Origin: Bacteroidia bacterium
GTDB taxonomy: Bacteria; Bacteroidota; Bacteroidia; AKYH767-A; OLB10
Reading direction: 5' to 3'
NCBI GenBank assembly: GCA_038206385.1
Contig: JBBRAW010000005.1
Coordinates: forward strand, 4,241 to 68,240
DNA length: 64,000 nt
Within the stretch, counting starts at the first letter, position 1. Each line of letters opens with the position of its first letter. Below the pieces are notes generated by a model. It saw only the letters and a list, made by a program, of their open reading frames with translations, ran no database searches and was not told the origin of the DNA. The translations under genes and the position numbers were made by a program. Shown here piece after piece: positions 3,567-59,905 of the stretch.

Positions 3567-6305
3567 ATGACAACAAATGAAGTGAGTGTATTAAATGCGC
3601 TCAATTTAAATATTAAACCCTATCCCTCCACAAAAGGGATACATGAATTATTTTCAGAAAAGGCATTAGCATTTTCAAATAAAATTGCCACTTCGAGTAG
3701 TATCCAAAATTATACGTATGCTCAATTAGATTCTCTTTCAACAGCACTCGCTGCATTATTACAACAACGTGGAATTAAACAAGGTGATTTCGTAGGAGTG
3801 TGTCTTCCACGTATTGTAGAGTTACCAATGGTGCTAATTGCAATTATAAAGGCTGGTGCAGCATACGTTCCCCTTGATCCTAGTTTCCCTGCTGATCGTT
3901 TGCGATTAATGTTGGATGATTCACAAGCACCAATTGTTATTACAACAAATCAATTAGCCGTTGATTTAGAATTAACAACCGAAAGAATATTAAATTTTGA
4001 TGTTACTGCATTAGAGAAAATTCCAAACGGATCTTTTAAACCAGTACCTGTTGTTGAAAATCAATTGGCTTATGTACTATATACATCTGGCTCGACAGGA
4101 AAACCAAAAGGTGTAATGGTAAAACATAATGGTGTTGTAAATCTTATGGTGGATTTAAAAGAACGCTTCAACATAAAACCTGAAGATACATTACTTGCGA
4201 TCTCTACTATTTCTTTTGATATTTCAGTGCTTGAATTCTTCTTGCCATTGCTAAGTGGTGCACGTGTACATCTTGCAACAAGAGAAGAATCAATGGATGC
4301 TACATGGCTTGATAAAACAATTCAAGATTTTCCAATTACTTATTTGCAAGGAACACCAACAACGTGGGAACTGCTTTTAGCATCTGGGTGGAAAGGCGCC
4401 AAACATTTAAATGTTTTATGTGGAGGTGAAGCGTTACGTTTTGAACTTGCAGAAAGATTATTTGGAAATAATTTAGCTGTATGGAATTTATATGGCCCAA
4501 CTGAAACATCTATTTGGTCAACTATAAAAAAGATTGACGAAACAGATTTTAAAAATATCGTGAATGGAGGAATGAGCATTGGTAAAACAATTGCAAATAC
4601 TTTATTATATATTGTTGATGAAACAGGAATACCTTGTCCATTAGGAGTGGCGGGAGAATTATGGATTGGTGGTGATGGTGTATCTGCCGGCTATTTAAAT
4701 CGTCCTGAATTAAATGCTGAAAAATTTACTCCTAATCCCTTTGATGAAGGAAATATTTATCGAACAGGTGATCGTGTAATCGTTGATCCCAATGGAAATT
4801 TACATTTCTTAAACCGCTTAGATCATCAAGTTAAAATACGTGGATACCGAATTGAATTAGGCGAAATTGAAGCCGCATTAAATAAAACTCCAAACATTCG
4901 TTTAGGTGTTGTAGTAGCTCGTCAAGGATCTACTGGTGATAGTTATCTTGCATCTTATTTTATTTCCGATTTAAACGATGGAAGTATCTCCAAAAATGAA
5001 TTACAAAAAAAATTAGCAACTGCTGCTAGAGAAAGTATGTCGACATTTTTACCCGACTACATGATTCCAAATACATATACACTATTAGATAAATTTCCAC
5101 TTACACCGAATGAAAAGATTGATCGAAAAAATTTACCAGATCCACAAATAAATTTCGATCTGATAAAAAAATCATTAAAAGAACAAGCCTTTAATGATAC
5201 AGAAAAAATTATTGCAGAAGTTTGGAAACAAATTCTCAATATTCATGATATTACTCTTGATGATGATTTCTTTAAGTTGGGAGGGCATTCCCTTTTAGCA
5301 GTTCGTATGATGGTAGAACTTGAACATCTTACAAAGGTGAAATTACCACTTGCCGTTTTATTTACGAATCCTACAATTGGATCGCTAAGTAAACTTTATG
5401 ATACACCACCTAGTGATTTAATTTGGAATCCGCTTGTTGTCATTAAAGAAACAGGAACTAGAAAGCCGTTATATTTTGCTCATGGTATTAGTGGAAATAT
5501 CTTCAAGTATTATGAACTTGCTCAACTATTGCACCCTGATCAACCTAGTTATGGATTACAGGCAATAGGTTTGAATGGAAAAGATGAACCACTGTCTAAC
5601 ATGAAAGAAATTGCAGCACATCACATAAAAGAAATTATAAAGTTTCAACCAGAAGGACCTTATGCATTAGCAGGAGGTTCATTTGGTGGTTACCTCGCCT
5701 ATGAAATGGCATTGCAATTAAAAGCACTTGGAAAAGAAATTAGCTTTCTTTGTTTATTTGATGTAGAAGCCGTTTCTGAATTGGAATTTTTATCTACTGG
5801 AATGAAACAAATTAAAGGTGTTCAGTTGTTTGCAGAACGGCTTATTAAACGTGCTGCAAATTTTATCGCATCCGACAATGAAAAACGTCAACAGTACCTT
5901 CAATCTAAACTGAATAAAAAAACAAATCAAAGTGGAAGTCATCAGGAAACTGAACTAGAATCGTGGCTTGATAAACATAAAATGGTAGAACTTATTGGCG
6001 AAGAATCTGCTGCAAGTTTTCGAAATATTGAAGAGGCTTGTTACAAAGCGATGATTGATTATAAAATTGAAAAGTTTAATATAGATCTAACACTTGTTCG
6101 TGCTCAAGAAGGTTTTTTTAACAATACTTTTTCACATGATTTAGGATGGAAACATTTTACCAACGGAAAAGTTGACGTACATGTCATTCCCGGTGATCAT
6201 AATTCTATTTTCTGGGAGCCTTATGTTTTTGAGCTCGCAAAAATTGTTAATGAATCATTATCACATGTTGCTAAAAGAAATGCAATCCGCCGCGTTGAAA
6301 ATTAA
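3567..6305 (+). CDS. Stand-alone NRPS A(Gly-type)-T-TE protein, paralogue of the preceding module
   Basis: Same A/T/TE motifs and same code DILQLGLIWK. Colinear with the previous ORF from its internal MTT.. onward. No C domain. Confidence 0.92.
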   Translation: MTTNEVSVLNALNLNIKPYPSTKGIHELFSEKALAFSNKIATSSSIQNYTYAQLDSLSTALAALLQQRGIKQGDFVGVCLPRIVELPMVLIAIIKAGAAYVPLDPSFPADRLRLMLDDSQAPIVITTNQLAVDLELTTERILNFDVTALEKIPNGSFKPVPVVENQLAYVLYTSGSTGKPKGVMVKHNGVVNLMVDLKERFNIKPEDTLLAISTISFDISVLEFFLPLLSGARVHLATREESMDATWLDKTIQDFPITYLQGTPTTWELLLASGWKGAKHLNVLCGGEALRFELAERLFGNNLAVWNLYGPTETSIWSTIKKIDETDFKNIVNGGMSIGKTIANTLLYIVDETGIPCPLGVAGELWIGGDGVSAGYLNRPELNAEKFTPNPFDEGNIYRTGDRVIVDPNGNLHFLNRLDHQVKIRGYRIELGEIEAALNKTPNIRLGVVVARQGSTGDSYLASYFISDLNDGSISKNELQKKLATAARESMSTFLPDYMIPNTYTLLDKFPLTPNEKIDRKNLPDPQINFDLIKKSLKEQAFNDTEKIIAEVWKQILNIHDITLDDDFFKLGGHSLLAVRMMVELEHLTKVKLPLAVLFTNPTIGSLSKLYDTPPSDLIWNPLVVIKETGTRKPLYFAHGISGNIFKYYELAQLLHPDQPSYGLQAIGLNGKDEPLSNMKEIAAHHIKEIIKFQPEGPYALAGGSFGGYLAYEMALQLKALGKEISFLCLFDVEAVSELEFLSTGMKQIKGVQLFAERLIKRAANFIASDNEKRQQYLQSKLNKKTNQSGSHQETELESWLDKHKMVELIGEESAASFRNIEEACYKAMIDYKIEKFNIDLTLVRAQEGFFNNTFSHDLGWKHFTNGKVDVHVIPGDHNSIFWEPYVFELAKIVNESLSHVAKRNAIRRVEN

Positions 6306-6978
6306 ACCCTATCATCCAACGGCAAATAACCCATTGCTATTTAATCCAGTGTTGGAAAATATATTAGTAATTGTAAAATTAAATTCGACAAGATTAGAAT
6401 ACTATAATTTAACCACTATCGAAAATCTTCATGCAACAAAATACCATCAACAAAAAGATGTGTTATCTTATTCTTGGAGACATCATTTATTGAATACTTG
6501 GTTAAGTAATTATTGCAATAAACCATTTGATCAATTAAACCTCAAAACTACAAAAGAAGGAAAAAATTATTTGGATACATTACCATTCCATTTCAACATT
6601 AGCAAATCAACAACCTACTTAGCCTTTAGTTTTGGGCCTAATCCCATCGGAGTTGATATAGAAACCATAAAAGACTTTAAGCCTTTCATGCCGATTGCAG
6701 ACCAGCATTTTCATGAGAATGAGCAATTACTTTTATCAGAAGAAAAATCGCCATTATCTTTTTTCTCAATCTGGACAAGAAAGGAAGCGCTTCTAAAGGC
6801 AAATGGATCTGGAATTAATGATAACCTAAAAAACTTGGATACAACATCAGAAAGCCATCAAATGGATTCAAGAATATATCAATTGGAAACTTACGCAAAT
6901 GATGAATTTATTGTGAGTCTTGCATATCAAAGTACAGATCCTCTTCTATTAAAAATATGTAATTATAACATTCTATAA
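6280..6978 (+). CDS. 4'-phosphopantetheinyl transferase (Sfp/AcpT-like)
   Basis: GVDIE and WTRKEALLKANGSG motifs. Start placed at ATG 6280, overlapping the NRPS stop; the ORF track start at 6172 is probably too long. Confidence 0.88.
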   Translation: MQSAALKIKPYHPTANNPLLFNPVLENILVIVKLNSTRLEYYNLTTIENLHATKYHQQKDVLSYSWRHHLLNTWLSNYCNKPFDQLNLKTTKEGKNYLDTLPFHFNISKSTTYLAFSFGPNPIGVDIETIKDFKPFMPIADQHFHENEQLLLSEEKSPLSFFSIWTRKEALLKANGSGINDNLKNLDTTSESHQMDSRIYQLETYANDEFIVSLAYQSTDPLLLKICNYNIL

Positions 6979-52523: not shown

Positions 52524-53711
52524 ATGCATATTTTAATAATACCATCATGGTATAAATCATATCCAGGAGATGTACTTGGAAGTTTTTTTGAGGAGCAGGC
52601 GAGAGCTTTAAAAAAGAATGGACATCAGGTGGGAATATTATTTCAGATATTTTTCCCTTTCTCAGATATATTTAAGAAGAAGTTAAAATATCCAGGTTAT
52701 TATGATGATAATGGAATTCCTACAATAGTATATGGTATTCAAGGATTCGTTCCACGATCAAGAAAATTTAATGATGCTTATGAAACGTATGTTACAAATA
52801 GAAAATTTAAACAATATGTAAAGCAATTTGGAATACCAGATATTATTCATGCGCATTCTATATTTGATGCAGGTCTTTTTGGTATTGATCTTTCAAAGAG
52901 ATACAATATACCTTTAGTAATAACGGAGCATCTAACACATTATATTACAGGAAAATTATCATTAGATCACGACATTCCTTTAGCACGAAAAATTTTTAGT
53001 GAAACAGATTGTTGTTTAGTTGTTGGTACTTTATTTAAAGAAGAATTAGCAAAAGCGGTGAATTTACCTTCATCAACATTTAAGGTAGTTTACAATATGG
53101 TTTCTGATTTATTTTTTACGAATGTTAAAGAAAAAAAATATCAGCAAGGAGAAGAATTTATTTTTTTTACTAATTCTTTTTTGAATCCACGAAAGAACCA
53201 CCAACTACTATTTAAATCGTTAAAAAAAATTCTTGATAAGGGATTTAAAGCAAAATTAATTGTTGGAGGATTTGGTGAAACAGAACAATATTTAAAGGAG
53301 CTAGTTCAAGAATACGGACTTCAGCAAAATGTAGAATTTACAGGATCGTTAAGTAGAGATCAAGTGAAGGAGAATATTGATAATTGCCATGCTTTTTTAT
53401 TAGCAAGTACGTATGAAACATTTGGAGTAGTATTGATAGAAGCTTTAGCAGGTGGAAGACCAATTATTACTACTGATTCTGGCGGACCGAGGGATATTAT
53501 AAAAAGTGAAACACTTGGTTTCTTATTAAAATCATTTGAGATAGAAGAGTTCGCTTCCGCAATGGAATATATGATAACGAATTATTCAGCGTATAATCAA
53601 TTAGAAATTAGTAAATATGCTTTTGAAAATTTTTCTGAAAATGTTATTTCACAACAGTTGGTGGATATTTACAAAGAGTTGATTCAAAAGAAAGCGAAAG
53701 CTATTGAGTAG
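52524..53711 (+). CDS. Glycosyltransferase family 4 (GT-B)
   Basis: PDIIHAHS, VITEH, ETFGVVLIEALAGGRPIITTDSGGP. Confidence 0.92.
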   Translation: MHILIIPSWYKSYPGDVLGSFFEEQARALKKNGHQVGILFQIFFPFSDIFKKKLKYPGYYDDNGIPTIVYGIQGFVPRSRKFNDAYETYVTNRKFKQYVKQFGIPDIIHAHSIFDAGLFGIDLSKRYNIPLVITEHLTHYITGKLSLDHDIPLARKIFSETDCCLVVGTLFKEELAKAVNLPSSTFKVVYNMVSDLFFTNVKEKKYQQGEEFIFFTNSFLNPRKNHQLLFKSLKKILDKGFKAKLIVGGFGETEQYLKELVQEYGLQQNVEFTGSLSRDQVKENIDNCHAFLLASTYETFGVVLIEALAGGRPIITTDSGGPRDIIKSETLGFLLKSFEIEEFASAMEYMITNYSAYNQLEISKYAFENFSENVISQQLVDIYKELIQKKAKAIE

Positions 53712-53712
53712 A

Positions 53713-53750
53713 AAAAAAGCGTCCGTTCCTGGTTAAGAAACGGACGACAA
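53713..53750. terminator. Hairpin terminator, U-tract on the minus strand
   Basis: CGTCCGTT/AACGGACG stem preceded by A7. Confidence 0.55.
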
Positions 53751-53917
53751 AATCAATGATAGTTACAGGAACATTAAAGTTGAAAAGTTAGAATAAATCA
53801 TTGGATTGTAAGTTATCGTGGACAAGGTTTATTTTCTATGGACTTTTCCAATTAATTTAATATTTTACAAAAGTCGGTTCTGTTAAAGCGTTAAAAAAGG
53901 GTGAAACCTGCAAATTA

Positions 53918-53951
53918 GGGGGGTATTTTACCCCCCGTGTAAAATACCCGT
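53918..53951. promoter_or_regulatory. GGGGGGTA-TTT-TACCCCCC palindrome plus a third TACCC half-site, candidate response-regulator site
   Basis: Perfect 8-bp arms; GGGTATTTTAC (53921) is also inverted at 53939. Striking GC patch in an AT-rich promoter. Confidence 0.6.
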
Positions 53952-54109
53952 TTATAAATGGTTTAAATCGTTTTCATTTGTATGACAAATCCATAACTAC
54001 TTATATGAGAGTTCAACGATGCCCAGAAGCAAATACTGGAGAATAAGGAAGTCAGATAAATACTAATAATATAAGTGCATGGCCCATTCCAGCTACGGAT
54101 AGAAATTTA

Positions 54110-54808
54110 ATGTACTCCTCTCGTTATGAGGCGATGACCCAAAGTGATAATAATGAATTATTATTTATTGATAGCATTGTTAATGTGAAAATATTAATTG
54201 AGTATTATAAAAGTTATGAAAACAGTTTGTTTTTAGGATTGCGTTTTTACCCAGGTTACGATAATAGCAATACCATTTTTTCTGTTTTATGCCTTTCAAG
54301 TGAAACCGAAGCACCAGATGCAGATCATATATTGTTAGGAGATACCAATATAATAACAACTCTTATTCCAACCACAGCTACCATTGCAAGATCATATATA
54401 AACCAATATTGGACGAATGTATTTATTGATGGTCAGCCACAATCATTATTGAACAGGTATTATAAAAAATCGAGGTACTTCTCATGGGAAACTATTTTAA
54501 TTTATTTATCTGCCAACATCCCAAATTTTGATGCAAATGACCCTCTTACATTTGAGAATTATTCGTTAAATTTTGAACATGCATTTTGTAACACAACAAT
54601 GGCAGAGCGATTTATAGGTTATGGCATAAACTTATTTCCTGGAATGGTTGCTATTGATTTATGTGGATATGCGATAATGATGCAAGTTTTAGATCAACAA
54701 TATAATTCATTGATTGATCCTAATGCAATTTATCAAGAGGGAAATTATGCAGGGAGGCATTTGGAAATAGCAAAACCATGCCCTCCATTTTGCGGTGACA
54801 CCTTTTAA
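54110..54808 (+). CDS. Hypothetical protein ending in PCPPxC (possibly starting at 54005 with a nonsense codon at 54044)
   Basis: GLRFYPG motif and C-terminal LEIAKPCPPFC. The upstream in-frame ATG 54005 is interrupted by one TAA. Confidence 0.7.
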   Translation: MYSSRYEAMTQSDNNELLFIDSIVNVKILIEYYKSYENSLFLGLRFYPGYDNSNTIFSVLCLSSETEAPDADHILLGDTNIITTLIPTTATIARSYINQYWTNVFIDGQPQSLLNRYYKKSRYFSWETILIYLSANIPNFDANDPLTFENYSLNFEHAFCNTTMAERFIGYGINLFPGMVAIDLCGYAIMMQVLDQQYNSLIDPNAIYQEGNYAGRHLEIAKPCPPFCGDTF

Positions 54809-54855
54809 CTCAATAAAAAAAATTATCTTGTTGCCTTTAATCAATAAAGGTAAAT

Positions 54856-55524
54856 GTGTTAAAACTACTCTTTTATTTATGTAAGGATGCGACTATTCCG
54901 TTAGCAATAATTACAAGTCTTTTATTATTATTGCTATTAAAGAAAATCTATAAAAACGAAATAAATATTCTTTTAATAGTTCTCTGCTATACCATAACAG
55001 AAATTACAGCTGGAACACTTGGTTTTCATCATCAATATAATTTATGGTTTTATAATTTAACGATTTTACCTACTTATTATTTATACGCTTATCTATATTA
55101 TAAAAATTTAAACAATGAAAGGTTAAAGAAATCAATAAAAGTAGCATCAATTTTATTTACAATAGTATACTTTATAAATAATAAATACGGACAAGGCGAA
55201 ACAGGATTTAACACCTTAACTTATATACCTGCAAATACATTTGTTGCAATTATCGCATTCATGTATATGAAACAATTTGTTGAAACCAGAGATGAAAATC
55301 CATTCTCAGATTTATTATTTTGGTTTTCGTTAGCAACAGTTCTTGATCTTACAGGATCGATACCGACATTGTGTACATTGTCGACAATTGATTTTGCAAA
55401 AGAAGAAATAGTTGTAAATTTTAATAAAATGCTTGCCTGGGTAGAATATTTGTGGTTTATAATAATAATAATTGGTTCAATATGGACAAAGGCAAGAGTG
55501 AAATTGCCATCTTCATTATCTTAA
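54856..55524 (+). CDS. Integral membrane protein with about 6-7 TM helices
   Basis: Hydrophobic throughout; YNLWFYN, FNTLTY, LLFWFSLA. 3' end overlaps the kinase start. Confidence 0.75.
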   Translation: MLKLLFYLCKDATIPLAIITSLLLLLLLKKIYKNEINILLIVLCYTITEITAGTLGFHHQYNLWFYNLTILPTYYLYAYLYYKNLNNERLKKSIKVASILFTIVYFINNKYGQGETGFNTLTYIPANTFVAIIAFMYMKQFVETRDENPFSDLLFWFSLATVLDLTGSIPTLCTLSTIDFAKEEIVVNFNKMLAWVEYLWFIIIIIGSIWTKARVKLPSSLS

Positions 55525-56276
55525 CAACTTTTGTTATTTTATTGATGATTCTTATGTTAGTTAACTTACTGCTTTCTGGTAGGAATAAACGACTAAGATT
55601 CAAAAGTGAATTAGCTGAAATGAAGACGCAGTTAGAAATGGAATTAGCAAAGACAAGAGTAGAAGTTGCTGAAAGTACTTTAAACGATGTTGCGCGCGAC
55701 TTGCATGATGATGTAGGACAACAAATAAGTTTTAGTATAATACAACTCAATAATTTTTTACAAGTTGCGGATCTAAATACAAACAAAACACTTGCTGAAG
55801 CAAAAGAAAGTATGCATGATGCATTACAATCTGTTCGATCAATTTCGAAAGTTTTAAGTCATGATTATATTAGTTCCTTTGGAATTAATAATGCGATAGA
55901 ACAATTATTTTCAGGACTAAAAAGAAAGGGAATCATTCAAACATCTTTAGATTTTTCGAATGAAATACATTTTATATCAGCATCAAATGAGATTTTTGCT
56001 TTTCGCATAATTCAAGAATGTATTAGCAATACCATTAAGCATGCAGAGGCTGATCATTTATCACTTTTTATTCGTGAGGAGAATAATATTATTACAATAA
56101 CATATAGTGATAATGGAAAGGGGATAAATTTCGAAATGATAAATAACGACTTCAAAAAATTCTCGATGGGATTTAGTAATCTCATCAAGCGAGCGGAATT
56201 GATGAAAGGAACAATAACGTTTTTACCTGCAGAAAATGGTGGTCTTAAAACAGTATTAATTTTTCCAAATATTTAA
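55482..56276 (+). CDS. Histidine kinase (HisKA_3 / NarX-type) with one TM helix and no sensor domain
   Basis: VARDLHDDVGQ, FRIIQECISNTIKHA, YSDNGKG, MGFSNL. Confidence 0.93.
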   Translation: MDKGKSEIAIFIILTTFVILLMILMLVNLLLSGRNKRLRFKSELAEMKTQLEMELAKTRVEVAESTLNDVARDLHDDVGQQISFSIIQLNNFLQVADLNTNKTLAEAKESMHDALQSVRSISKVLSHDYISSFGINNAIEQLFSGLKRKGIIQTSLDFSNEIHFISASNEIFAFRIIQECISNTIKHAEADHLSLFIREENNIITITYSDNGKGINFEMINNDFKKFSMGFSNLIKRAELMKGTITFLPAENGGLKTVLIFPNI

Positions 56277-56286
56277 ACGGAGCATT

Positions 56287-56961
56287 ATGGAAATCAAAAT
56301 TGGATTAGTAGATGATCATCATTTGATACGTAAGGGGATACGATCATTGTTAGGAAATTTAAACAATTACGAAGTAGTTCTTGAGGCATCGAATGGAAAA
56401 GAAATGATTCAACAATTGGAGACAGCAGAAATACTACCTGAAATAATTTTGATTGATGTGAACATGCCTGTGATGGGCGGTGTTGAAGCAGTAAAAATAG
56501 TTACAGATAAATTTCCAGAAATTAAAATGATAGCATTATCGGTGAGTGATGATGTTAAGACTATAAAAGAGATGATTGGTGCTGGGGCAAAGGCATATCT
56601 CTTTAAAGATTCATCACCGGAATTATTTTTAAATGTTTTAGTTCAGGTGAAAGAAAACGGTTTTTTTTATGATAAAGTTGTTATTGAAAGTTTAATGTTG
56701 GCGAATAAACCACCATCATGGGAAAACAAGAAAAAGGATAATTATAAATCGCAGCTTCAAGTACAAGAACTCACTTTAAGAGAAATAGAGTTTATCCAAT
56801 ATTGTTGTAGCGAACTTACCTATAAAGAAATCGCGGAAAAAATGAAATTGAGTTATCGTACTATTGATGGACATCGAGAAGCAGTTTTTACCAAGCTAGA
56901 AGTAAAATCCAGAACGGGGTTGGTAATTTTTGCTATTTATTTGGGTCTAGTAAAATTATAG
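56287..56961 (+). CDS. NarL/LuxR-family response regulator
   Basis: LVDDH, ILIDVNMPVMGG, GAKAYLFKD, LTLREIE...TYKEIAEKM.LS.RTIDGHR. Confidence 0.94.
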   Translation: MEIKIGLVDDHHLIRKGIRSLLGNLNNYEVVLEASNGKEMIQQLETAEILPEIILIDVNMPVMGGVEAVKIVTDKFPEIKMIALSVSDDVKTIKEMIGAGAKAYLFKDSSPELFLNVLVQVKENGFFYDKVVIESLMLANKPPSWENKKKDNYKSQLQVQELTLREIEFIQYCCSELTYKEIAEKMKLSYRTIDGHREAVFTKLEVKSRTGLVIFAIYLGLVKL

Positions 56962-57009
56962 GATTTTGATTGGTAAAAGATAATATCTTCGAAAGACAAA
57001 AGCGTTATA

Positions 57010-57771
57010 ATGATTCGTCAAAATTTAACTAAAAAGAAGGCGGCACGTCGTCATATTAAATGGCGTGGACATGATATTTTACGAATAGAAAGTTTTAGCG
57101 ATGCCATCTTCGCTTTCGCAATGACATTACTTGTGGTTTCATTAGAAGTGCCTAAAACATTTGTGGAATTAAAGATGGGAATGTCTGGCGTGCCTGGATT
57201 TGCAATATGTTTTAGTTTATTATTTTTTATTTGGCATGATCAATATATTTTCTTTCGTCATTATTATTTGAATGATACGCGAACAATATTTTTAAATGCG
57301 ATATTATTATTTACAGTTTTATTTTATGTGTATCCATTAAAATTTCTTTTCTCGTTATTGATAGATGGAAATACGTTTATGGAAAATGGTGTGGCGCATG
57401 AGAAATTAACATCATACACTCAGCTACGAGATTTGATGGAAATTTATGGATTAGGATTCTTCTTTATCTATTTTGTTTTTCTGTTATTGTACATGAATGC
57501 GATGCGACATAAAGAAAAATTGCAACTCAACAACATCGAAATTTATCATACCAAAACAGAAATGTACAAACAAGGTTTCATGATGTTTTTTGGTTTATCG
57601 AGTGCCATTGCCGCCTACCTCGTTCCCGATATATACACAGGAACCACCGGATTTTTTTACATGCTCATTGGCCCCGTATTAGTATTCTTATTCAAATTCC
57701 GATTTGCTCGAATGAAAAAAATATTTTCACAAAGCGAGATGGAGGAACATGATGTTTGGGTGGCGGGATGA
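57010..57771 (+). CDS. TMEM175 (DUF1211) family potassium channel-like protein
   Basis: RIESFSDAIFAFAMTLLV signature, W..H/Q..FF motif, about 6 TM helices. Confidence 0.85.
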   Translation: MIRQNLTKKKAARRHIKWRGHDILRIESFSDAIFAFAMTLLVVSLEVPKTFVELKMGMSGVPGFAICFSLLFFIWHDQYIFFRHYYLNDTRTIFLNAILLFTVLFYVYPLKFLFSLLIDGNTFMENGVAHEKLTSYTQLRDLMEIYGLGFFFIYFVFLLLYMNAMRHKEKLQLNNIEIYHTKTEMYKQGFMMFFGLSSAIAAYLVPDIYTGTTGFFYMLIGPVLVFLFKFRFARMKKIFSQSEMEEHDVWVAG

Positions 57772-58150: not shown

Positions 58151-58688
58151 TTCCCCGCCCCTTGGGGCGAATGTATAAATTTGTGGATGTCAGAAAGTAA
58201 ATATATTCATAAGTCACAAAATGTTTCGGTTTTGTTGTATCATTTTGTATGTCGAGCAAAATATAGAAGAATTGTATTCAGTGAAGAGGTAGACAAAACG
58301 ATGAAAGAAATATGATTAGAAATAAGTAAGCGCTATGAAGTACATTTTTTAGAAATAGGCACAGACCAATTCCACGTTCATTTTTTGTTACAATCGGTTC
58401 CTAAGACTAGCCCTACACAAATAATAACAATGATAAAAAGTTTAACAGCGAAAGAGATATTCAAGAAACATCAGGAAGTGAAAAGAATTTTGTGGGGCGG
58501 AGAGTTTTGGTCAGATGGATATTTTGTGAATACTGTAAGTAAATTTGGCGATGAACAAACGATATCAAAATATGTGAGTGAACAAGGAGTAGAGAAGGAA
58601 TATAGAATCTTACACAAGGAAAAACAGTTAAGATTGTTTTAGACAAACAAAAAGATACCCCGCTGCTCTGCGGCGGGGAGATTCATTG
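58150..58688 (+). mobile_element. tnpA: IS200/IS605-family element (tnpA only), transposase inactivated
   Basis: ATG 58187 to TAG 58642: YHFVCRAKYRR, HVH (HUH), LWGGEFWSDGYF, KYV. In-frame TGA at 58313. End hairpins CGCCCC-TT-GGGGCG (58156) and CCCCGCTGC-TCT-GCGGCGGGG (58658). Confidence 0.88.
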
Positions 58689-58748: not shown

Positions 58749-59093
58749 CTATTTAAAATTATCCGTAATTCTTTTCTTGTCTTCATGTTCCTTGTCGTTT
58801 TTGTGATACAATTCGATGAATGTAATTTTTTGTTCAACAGGAAAGAGAGCATATATTAATCTCAATCCTGAATTTACTCCTTTTCCTTTTAATGACTTAC
58901 ACGCAATTTTTTTAACCTTTATGATACAGGTTTCTAAACCCAAATTATAAATACGAAAACTAAACGGTGGTCTTTCATCGGGTGTAACTTTCAACACACG
59001 TTTTACCACGTCTAAATCATCATTTAATGTTCTGAATTTTTTTAAAAGAGTTTTTAAATCCTTTTTAAATTCGGACAATTCATCAAAGGTCAT
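58749..59093 (-). CDS. RelE/ParE-like putative toxin
   Basis: EFKKDLKTLLKKFRTL, IIKVKKIACKSLKGKGVNSGLRLIYA; overlaps the antitoxin stop. Confidence 0.7.
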   Translation of the reverse strand: MTFDELSEFKKDLKTLLKKFRTLNDDLDVVKRVLKVTPDERPPFSFRIYNLGLETCIIKVKKIACKSLKGKGVNSGLRLIYALFPVEQKITFIELYHKNDKEHEDKKRITDNFK

Positions 59094-59905
59094 TGTGCTT
59101 CAATTTCATCTCCATAGTTTCTTACAGAGAAAGGAGCATCTCTATAAAAAGCTAATTCATAATTTATTTCTTCTCCTTCTTTTGAAGCCAACCAAGGCAT
59201 ATCCTTATGAGAATAGTTGCTTATTGCAGCAGCAGACCAATCACTCATTTGCACAATTACTCTGTCGATGATTTCCTTTTCACTTGCTCTTAGTTCAGTT
59301 AAATCAGCTTTCTCTAAAGGTAAATAACGAATTTGAGGATAACCATGATAATCTGTTTTTACTCTTTTCAATTGCACCTTATCAATCATTTGATTAATGA
59401 TTGTATCAAACTTTTGTGGCACTGGGCCAAAAGGTAATTTACGATACTTAGCGCCTGTTAAATGTTCTTCATACAATTCATAATAGTTGAAGTCGGAAAA
59501 ATAAAGCAACTTGTAAAGAACAGTTTCACCAACATTGGGCTTACCTGCACAGCGTTCAAGAATATACAACAAAACATTTTTAAACTTATTTACTTGCAGC
59601 GTCGCAACAGAAATTCGTTCTTCTACTTTCTTTGTCTTTTTTTTTTCTTTTGCATCAATATCTTGATCTCGATAATTTTCGGCAGAGAAATCTTTAGACA
59701 TAAAATCATCCAATGAAAACGCTAAAATCATTGACAGTTTTTGCAATTCGAGAATATCAACACTTCTGTTTCCTAATTCAATTTGAGCCAGCGACGGTCG
59801 AGAAATTTTGACAGTTTTAGCCAAATCTTCCTGCGACAACCCCTTCATTTTACGAAGCACAGTTATCCTCTGACCTATTTGCTTTTGTGACAATTTTATG
59901 CTCAT
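59090..59905 (-). CDS. XRE-HTH plus DUF4065 (Panacea/SocA-like) antitoxin
   Basis: LSQEDLAK..ISRPSLAQIELG HTH; KLLYFSDF, YRKLPFGPVP, ISNYSHKDMPW. Confidence 0.85.
   Translation of the reverse strand: MSIKLSQKQIGQRITVLRKMKGLSQEDLAKTVKISRPSLAQIELGNRSVDILELQKLSMILAFSLDDFMSKDFSAENYRDQDIDAKEKKKTKKVEERISVATLQVNKFKNVLLYILERCAGKPNVGETVLYKLLYFSDFNYYELYEEHLTGAKYRKLPFGPVPQKFDTIINQMIDKVQLKRVKTDYHGYPQIRYLPLEKADLTELRASEKEIIDRVIVQMSDWSAAAISNYSHKDMPWLASKEGEEINYELAFYRDAPFSVRNYGDEIEAQ

Follow-up and report, generated by a model that had tools for sequence, protein, structure and literature searches.

Histidine kinases that carry no recognisable sensing domain raise the question of where their input comes from. 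One such kinase is encoded in a 64,000-nucleotide (nt) stretch of a Bacteroidia bacterium genome (contig JBBRAW010000005.1, positions 4,241 to 68,240; hereafter the window, whose own numbering is used below), where it forms part of a compact module of ~3 kb. For this locus, comparative genomics points to a specific and testable answer. The kinase belongs to a strictly conserved four-gene signalling operon of Bacteroidota which has no prior characterisation, and the four co-inherited genes probably constitute an autoregulated, accessory-protein-dependent two-component system.

Sequence reading of 53700-57200 places the four genes on one strand. The first open reading frame (ORF1, 54110-54808, +, 232 amino acids) encodes a predicted soluble alpha/beta protein of an unnamed family, without signal peptide and with the tail LEIAKPCPPFCGDTF. 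ORF2 (54856-55524, +, 222 amino acids) encodes a seven-transmembrane (7-TM) protein, likewise of an unnamed family, which presumably serves the kinase as membrane partner or as receptor module. These are followed by the sensor-less histidine kinase (55482-56276, +, 264 amino acids, HisKA_3 plus HATPase_c; best start ATG at 55482) and by a NarL/LuxR-class response regulator (56287-56961, +, 224 amino acids), in which Pfam and NCBIfam recognise a REC domain and a GerE helix-turn-helix. A GC-rich palindrome at 53918-53951 precedes ORF1 as putative operator. A first-pass annotation, made from the sequence alone, had proposed this combination, and all of its elements are in place.

The ORF2 family was delimited by an exhaustive phmmer search against 1.84 billion cluster representatives, which yielded 101 matches at E <= 1e-3 (31 at E <= 1e-10), all of 98-239 amino acids. 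Scans of GTDB genomes and of metagenomes, along with look-ups of exact sequences, provided the genomic context of 16 lineages, including that of the window (others are labelled L008, L011 and so on), with 19-35% identity to the window's ORF2. A protein with a CP[PST]xC tail lies upstream of ORF2 in 15 of the 15 lineages with flanking sequence. In 16 of 16, a single-TM HisKA_3 kinase overlaps the end of ORF2, and the kinase is followed by a REC-GerE regulator in 11 of 11. Same-species strains, found by word-indexed search, share 94-97% identity and identical synteny; such searches gave two matches for ORF1, one for ORF2 and three for an ORF2 profile, and recovered almost nothing beyond the species. 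Furthermore, a metagenome scan using the ORF1 alignment gave no match, and a scan of genome contigs with six ORF2 sequences gave just two loci.

The joint recurrence of the four-gene order, the Cys motif, the ORF2/kinase overlap and the DNA core in independent, highly diverged loci is beyond chance. The first-pass annotation had regarded the gene order as recurring without a characterised example and had made its case depend on co-occurrence of the genes elsewhere; they do co-occur in the recovered lineages, strictly in all 16 wherever flanks exist. A literature search found no paper describing the module, and public sources hold no names for any of its proteins. The ORF1 and ORF2 families have no Pfam or NCBIfam name and no solved structure, and no literature on them was found.

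The kinase and its seven-helix neighbour

Apart from HisKA_3 (residues 69-126, 1.9e-09) and HATPase_c (170-262, 9.4e-11), Pfam detects nothing in the kinase. Its first 68 residues comprise a 7-residue external stub, one TM helix (~8-31) and a coiled-coil linker, and the phosphoacceptor His75 lies in the H-box ARDLHDDVGQ, which is conserved in 7 lineages. In a seven-lineage alignment, the segments NLLLxxRNxRL and EVxExTL are conserved at the TM end and in the juxtamembrane region. Together with the regulator (Response_reg 1.4e-21, GerE 8.8e-13; best NCBIfam similarities to MctR and NarL, both under the equivalog cut-offs), the kinase shows the domain composition of a HisKA_3/NarL-class two-component pair. 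The single N-terminal helix and the lack of a sensor domain, as described in the first-pass annotation, are thus borne out by Pfam and by the sequence. Intramembrane-sensing kinases are defined by two TM helices, a connecting loop of < 25 amino acids and no other input domain; the last of these features is found here, but all lineages have one hydrophobic helix instead of two.

ORF2 is hydrophobic throughout, and AlphaFold2 (32-sequence alignment) models it as a seven-helix bundle (predicted local distance difference test, pLDDT, 93; predicted template modelling score, pTM, 0.90), for which the Lys/Arg distribution indicates an N-out/C-in topology. The conserved segments are NxWxYN, QG, NPFxxFxFWFS, P170 and GLxWT, and only N62, W64, N67, W156, P170, G207 and W210 are invariant or nearly so. 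The external loops are very short, with polar conserved residues near the outer helix ends (N62, W64, N67, Q113). Searching 32 family members against Pfam (E <= 0.1) gave no recurrent match and NCBIfam gave none; a sub-threshold match of ORF2 to Ceramidase (E = 0.003) was rejected as chance, being present in 1 of the 32 members. By sequence, nothing significant was found in the PDB, and Foldseek returned generic 7-TM bundles such as rhodopsin and G-protein-coupled receptors (GPCRs), with a TM-score of at most 0.62 (to a thermophilic rhodopsin) and all E >= 0.1. The family alignment holds no retinal-type conserved Lys in helix 7.

The kinase ATG lies 43 nt inside ORF2, within its conserved I-W-T-K codons, and the overlap amounts to 25-43 nt in all seven lineages measured. 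A start codon that is always embedded in a gene never found without its partner is what genomes usually show for the subunits of a single complex. The first-pass annotation had placed the kinase start inside the last codons of a 6-7 TM protein, now predicted to possess seven helices, and had read this protein as the split-off input of the kinase. The comparative evidence favours such a role, as ORF2 is never fused (0 of 101 cluster representatives carry a kinase; the protein is always stand-alone), the kinase start always overlaps it and the kinase has no input domain. Because the kinase has no sensing domain and its start is embedded in an ORF2 that is never unaccompanied, ORF2 may be read as its input or adaptor and is, on these grounds, the best candidate for the missing input. 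In the proposed mechanism, ORF2 and the kinase would be made together by virtue of the embedded start. ORF2 would then serve as the membrane partner that detects or relays the stimulus and sets the kinase/phosphatase balance, contacting the TM helix of the kinase and its juxtamembrane NLLLxxRNxRL / EVxExTL segment.

Two frames overlapping by 43 nt could also arise if a single polytopic kinase gene had been broken by a frameshift, leaving a pseudogene or an assembly error. The chance of this is next to nil, given that both the split and the overlap are present in 16 of 16 lineages from independent assemblies and that none of the 101 family representatives exceeds 239 amino acids. Moreover, the inferred topology, with the C-terminus of ORF2 inside and the N-terminus of the kinase outside, is incompatible with a simple fusion.

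The DNA element upstream of ORF1

The palindrome, which occurs once in the 64-kb window, has the form GGGTATTTTAC-N7-GTAAAATACCC (53921-53949) with 11-nt arms that are 100% complementary, and a nested hairpin GGGGGGTA/TACCCCCC occupies 53918-53936. It holds two inverted copies of GGGTRTTTTWCAC (53921-53933, +; 53937-53949, -). Comparison of the 450 nt upstream of ORF1 across distant loci identified the same GGGTRTTTTWCAC as the conserved core, with the word GGGT(G/A)TTTT(T/A)CAC. At least eight lineages (the window's, L008, L011, L012, L013, L015, L019 and L022) carry this core ahead of ORF1, in various layouts: two inverted copies in the window's lineage, four copies in a 70-nt perfect palindrome in L008, and four direct repeats in L011 (23-26 nt period) and in L022 (21-24 nt period). 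L019 has GTATTTTCC as an inverted pair, L013 has one copy, and L012 and L015 have one-base variants.

The palindrome described in the first-pass annotation is therefore real, but its NarL-like TACCC half-site is strain-specific, because the sister strains (94-97% identical) retain the outer arms GGGTATTTT/AAAATACCC and have another sequence in place of the inner TACCCCCC arm. The word TACCCCC is present in the window and is not conserved in sister strains or in other lineages; the conserved core is GGGTRTTTTWCAC. Between same-species strains the palindrome spacer (window 53932-53938; L001 5065-5093; L007 4065-4093) is essentially inverted. The window and L007 have the full ACAC-ending copy of the motif on the - strand, L001-L006 on the + strand, which suggests flipping between the inverted palindrome arms.

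Exact matches to the motif numbered 6 against 0.01 in shuffles (nine lineages, 107 kb), all of them <=200 nt upstream of ORF1, although this ratio is inflated, as the pattern was derived from the very loci in which it was counted. In an unbiased k-mer count, GGTGTTTTT was common to 5 of the 7 upstream regions; across 200 control draws, no 8-mer was shared by five lineages. Allowing <=1 mismatch, no further site was found in the 64-kb window or in loci L001-L017. Downstream of the palindrome, TTCATTTG (53973-53980, +) may represent a Bacteroidota-type -7 box (consensus TAnnTTTG), ~25 nt 5' of an ATG at 54005; the same sequence lies 23 nt 5' of the L008 ORF1 start, and its 8-mer is found in 3 of 7 upstream regions. 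In L025, a marginal member of the ORF2 family (E = 1e-4), the G-run word GGGG(C/G)(T/A)ATTATTAG is present twice in 2560-2600, a divergent repeat that is consistent with co-divergence of operator and regulator.

A palindrome of this kind may act as RNA, as a terminator or attenuator hairpin, or may be the site of an unlinked factor rather than the operator of the module's regulator. Such a role could account for the T-run GTTTTTT that follows the hairpin in sister strains, for the perfect 70-nt hairpin that L008 can form, and for a stem that is kept between strains while the loop changes or inverts. Nevertheless, it is improbable, since neither the four direct repeats of L011 and L022 nor the single copy of L013 can form a hairpin, Rfam gave no match in the leader, and the terminator scan did not call the palindrome (a sigma-70 scan was uninformative). 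A protein-binding site fits the GGGTRTTTTWCAC element better than an RNA structure does, because the motif also occurs as direct repeats or in single copy and has no Rfam match.

As to the protein that would bind there, the module's own regulator is the only DNA-binding protein to travel and co-vary with the motif, and its recognition-helix segment RT(V/I)DG(Y/H)RE(S/A)VF is almost invariant among homologues. For these reasons, the element is a candidate operator of this regulator, and autoregulation, which the first-pass annotation had put forward, is a plausible and well-founded expectation given a conserved motif upstream of ORF1. According to the proposed mechanism, the phosphorylated NarL-type regulator would bind the GGGTRTTTTWCAC repeats and thereby control the whole operon in a feedback loop. 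The compactness of the module, along with its own conserved candidate operator, would make it transferable into a reporter host.

ORF1 and its terminal cysteines

The structure model of ORF1 is a moderately confident alpha/beta domain (pLDDT 74.7, pTM 0.76), with the tail at low confidence. Homologues measure 232-387 amino acids, and a folded domain of ~200 amino acids is conserved throughout; their positions are 54110 in the window, 1147 in L008, 786 in L011, 3060 in L012, 1363 in L013, 1715 in L014, 2739 in L015, 2611 in L019, 2785 in L022 and 2658 in L025. ORF1 has no match in Pfam or NCBIfam, its homologues are likewise without a Pfam family, and the PDB holds no significant relative by sequence or by fold. 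Judging from 12 synonymous versus 6 non-synonymous changes relative to a sister strain, ORF1 is a maintained gene under purifying selection.

In the sister strains ORF1 is annotated with 267 amino acids, its start being the ATG equivalent to 54005. The corresponding interval of the window (54005-54112) contains an in-frame TAA at 54044-54046, and codon 54110 is ATG in the window versus TTG in the sister strains, which suggests a nonsense mutation together with a start further downstream that was newly gained or strengthened. Across the 35-residue extension there are 2 synonymous versus 4 non-synonymous differences. Given the TAA at 54044 and the new ATG at 54110, the 267-amino-acid form is probably irrelevant in the window.

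ORF1 ends in KPCPPFCGDTF (...GRHLEIAKPCPPFCGDTF), with four residues after the second Cys; the motif occupies codons 54776-54793, of which 54779-54793 encode CPPFC. A PCPPxC tail, as noted in the first-pass annotation, is indeed present, but the strict core is C-P-[PST]-x-C, the leading Pro being usual and not invariant. Examples from other lineages include LEIGKPCPPKCGLMF..., EVGCPCPPKCPNSNPK, EIGNPCPPRCLK, GGRPCPPHCP, VAEPCPTNCGIINTENF and SRKCPPLC. The residues R122, G186, P223, C224, P225 and C228 are invariant in the aligned homologues, in which the tail pair supplies the only conserved cysteines. A conserved LEIG strand precedes the tail, and a short extension of variable sequence comes after it.

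The export status of ORF1 differs among lineages. A Sec or lipoprotein signal is found in 6 of 10 lineages, namely L008, L012 (...LSYSC), L014, L015 (...LHFSC), L019 (...MQFSC) and L025 (...AWSAC), in some cases with long Pro/Thr/Gln-rich linkers after the signal (e.g., L019 and L012). The other four (the window's, L011, L013 and L022) carry no signal peptide; in the window the N-terminus of ORF1 is not hydrophobic, and no remnant of a signal peptide exists in any frame of 53712-54110. The predicted topology of ORF2 is alike in lineages with and without an ORF1 signal, and a flipped ORF2 topology in those lacking the signal was rejected by this comparison. Thus, ORF1 may act from either side of the membrane, may take another export route, or may be an output of the system rather than a co-sensor.

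The first of the roles to be weighed for ORF1 is that of a ligand, in which its Cys-Pro-Pro-x-Cys tail, as a tethered disulfide loop or a released peptide, would be sensed by ORF2 in a quorum-like or redox circuit. Several features accord with it: the tail is the only element with invariant Cys and lies at the extreme C-terminus, its low confidence in the model points to probable flexibility, the short outer loops of ORF2 and the polar residues near its outer helix ends resemble those of a pocket receptor, and ORF1 is exported as a protein or lipoprotein in six lineages. It is nonetheless unlikely. ORF1 comprises a conserved folded domain of ~200 amino acids and is not a short precursor, and no peptidase, transporter or modification gene is conserved at the locus. 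In the ORF2 alignment there is no set of conserved His, Cys, Ser or Asp residues as expected of a processing peptidase, and the absence of an invariant His, Cys or Ser, together with the absence of a Pfam AgrB/AgrD match, argues against an AgrB-type peptidase. An agr-like peptide circuit is thus unlikely, because ORF1 is large and folded, catalytic His/Cys are absent from ORF2 and the locus includes no transporter. Furthermore, a cytoplasmic disulfide would not be expected in the four lineages without an export signal, and because ORF1 of the window has no signal peptide, its role there as a periplasmic or quorum-like, disulfide-closed ligand is doubtful.

A bolder form of this idea regards the module as a bacterial GPCR-like unit, with ORF2 as free-standing receptor, the rigid CPPxC tail as a tethered agonist that acts from outside and whose docking is gated by its redox, metal or haem state, and a lateral helix-to-helix signal to the single-pass kinase. 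This is distinctly improbable; if true, it would add a new input principle for two-component systems and two new protein families.

Alternatively, ORF1 may be a regulated output, i.e., an effector or protective protein such as those of liaIH ahead of liaFSR, leaving ORF2 alone to modulate the kinase. The position of ORF1 as the first gene behind the conserved motif would suit an output, as would an export status that varies while ORF2 topology stays constant, and the small gap that usually parts ORF1 from ORF2, as against the constant ORF2/kinase overlap. On the other hand, adjacency in 15 of 15 lineages and an invariant Cys tail indicate a tighter tie than that of a typical regulon member, ORF1 and ORF2 overlap by 7 nt in L022, and besides ORF2 there is no other candidate input. 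An output role is hence possible, though not probable. In the preferred mechanism, that of a four-component autoregulated system, ORF1 would be the obligatory third component, its likeliest role being that of a co-sensor or modulator alongside ORF2, as SaeP and SaeQ are for SaeS; more speculatively, the tail thiols may form a redox-, metal- or haem-responsive element. We infer the ORF2-kinase contact, the binding of the regulator and the role and chemistry of the Cys tail from sequence and gene arrangement. If the tail proves to be signal-responsive, it would represent a new redox-, metal- or haem-sensing motif.

Several observations weigh against this mechanism. The mixed export status of ORF1 makes no single membrane side evident, so that ORF1 could be output and not input, and the conserved residues of ORF2 point to no particular ligand. 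The layout of the motif is not uniform, with inverted copies in the window, L008 and L019, direct repeats in L011 and L022 and one copy in L013, and L014 and L025 carry different repeats, composed of a G-run plus AT-rich sequence. The taxonomic range is poorly covered, as the lineages with a known taxon are a Bacteroidota metagenome-assembled genome (MAG; the window's own species) and a Chitinophagaceae MAG (L008). Lastly, no RNA run with the locus was found, the matching runs being DNA metagenomes only.

Neighbourhood and known systems

Directly 3' of the module lies a gene for a TMEM175-like (DUF1211) membrane protein recognised by Pfam (57010-57771, +), which is probably outside the core module. 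In five further lineages whose downstream sequence is long enough to tell (L012, L013, L015, L022 and L025), no such gene adjoins the module. In L008 a TMEM175/DUF1211-type putative K+ channel gene is located at 5759-6385 (-), 1.5 kb from the module and on the opposite strand. On the other side, a hairpin with an 11-bp stem (53720-53746) lies just after a GT4 glycosyltransferase gene, with a T-run on the minus strand. It resembles a terminator for a leftward transcript, though 53747-54110 contains no minus-strand gene; a bidirectional terminator is one possibility, and an unannotated transcript running leftward is another.

Further downstream, an IS200-like Y1 transposase is split over two ORFs at 58181-58642 (58181-58315 corresponding to PF01797 positions 2-31 and 58385-58642 to positions 57-121), which is probably a decayed insertion-sequence copy. 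At 58749-59905 (-), a gene with a helix-turn-helix and similarity to SocA/Panacea antitoxins (59090-59905) overlaps a family-less ORF of 114 amino acids (58749-59093), and the two may form a toxin-antitoxin pair.

The relation of the module to known systems appears to be one of analogy and not homology, as membership fails at the sequence or domain level. With agrBDCA it shares the order of a Cys-containing product, a polytopic membrane protein, a kinase and a regulator, and probably autoregulation. AgrD, however, is a 46-amino-acid precursor, AgrB a His/Cys peptidase, AgrC a polytopic sensor and AgrA a LytTR protein, none of which is matched in the module. As in 7TMR-DISM and fused bacterial 7-TM receptors, a seven-helix membrane module would provide the signalling input; unlike in these, there is no Pfam match and no DISMED domain, and ORF2 is always a separate polypeptide. 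With respect to NarX/NarQ-NarL, a nitrate system with operators of TACYYMT heptamers, the periplasmic P-box sensor and HAMP are absent from the kinase, which scores 51-74 bits with the NarX/NarQ models versus cut-offs of 553-578. In the NlpE-CpxA and RcsF-IgaA-RcsCDB systems, an exported lipoprotein with essential cysteines reports the envelope or redox state to a partner in the inner membrane, and RcsB is of the NarL class. Unlike in the module, the parts of these systems are not in one operon and their kinases have large sensor domains; no homology was detected.

The cell-envelope stress systems LiaFSR and VraTSR of Firmicutes resemble the module in several respects: the HisKA_3 kinase lacks an extracytoplasmic sensor, the regulator is of the NarL class, the gene just upstream encodes a membrane accessory protein, and the operon is autoregulated, the last being a prediction for the module. 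LiaF is distinguished by a cytoplasmic C-terminal domain, and LiaS combines two TM helices with a HAMP domain. Pfam found neither a LiaF-type nor a HAMP domain in the module, and neither Pfam nor NCBIfam gave a LiaF/YvqF match for ORF1, ORF2 or their homologues. In contrast to LiaF, ORF2 is predicted to be an all-helical 7-TM bundle without a soluble domain, and the module has the additional CP[PST]xC protein.

The closest functional precedent would be saePQRS of Staphylococcus aureus. Sae is a HisKA/OmpR-class pair, while that of the module is HisKA_3/NarL-class. SaeQ has 4 TM helices and the intramembrane-sensing kinase SaeS 2, as against 7 and 1 in the module, SaeP lacks the Cys-tail motif, and ORF1 of the window lacks the lipoprotein signal. 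No family relation of ORF1 or ORF2 was detected with the Pfam and NCBIfam profile libraries. The two systems nevertheless share the order of an accessory protein (a lipoprotein in Sae, with an export signal in 6 of 10 lineages of the module), a polytopic membrane protein and a two-component pair, together with a kinase that has no real sensor domain and accessory genes placed behind a promoter with sites (here candidate sites) for the regulator. A SaeR-dependent promoter drives expression of the lipoprotein SaeP and the membrane protein SaeQ, which assemble with SaeS into a ternary complex and switch on its phosphatase activity (PMC5083920). The present module would add Bacteroidota to the groups with multi-component two-component systems, most known cases of which come from Firmicutes and Proteobacteria.

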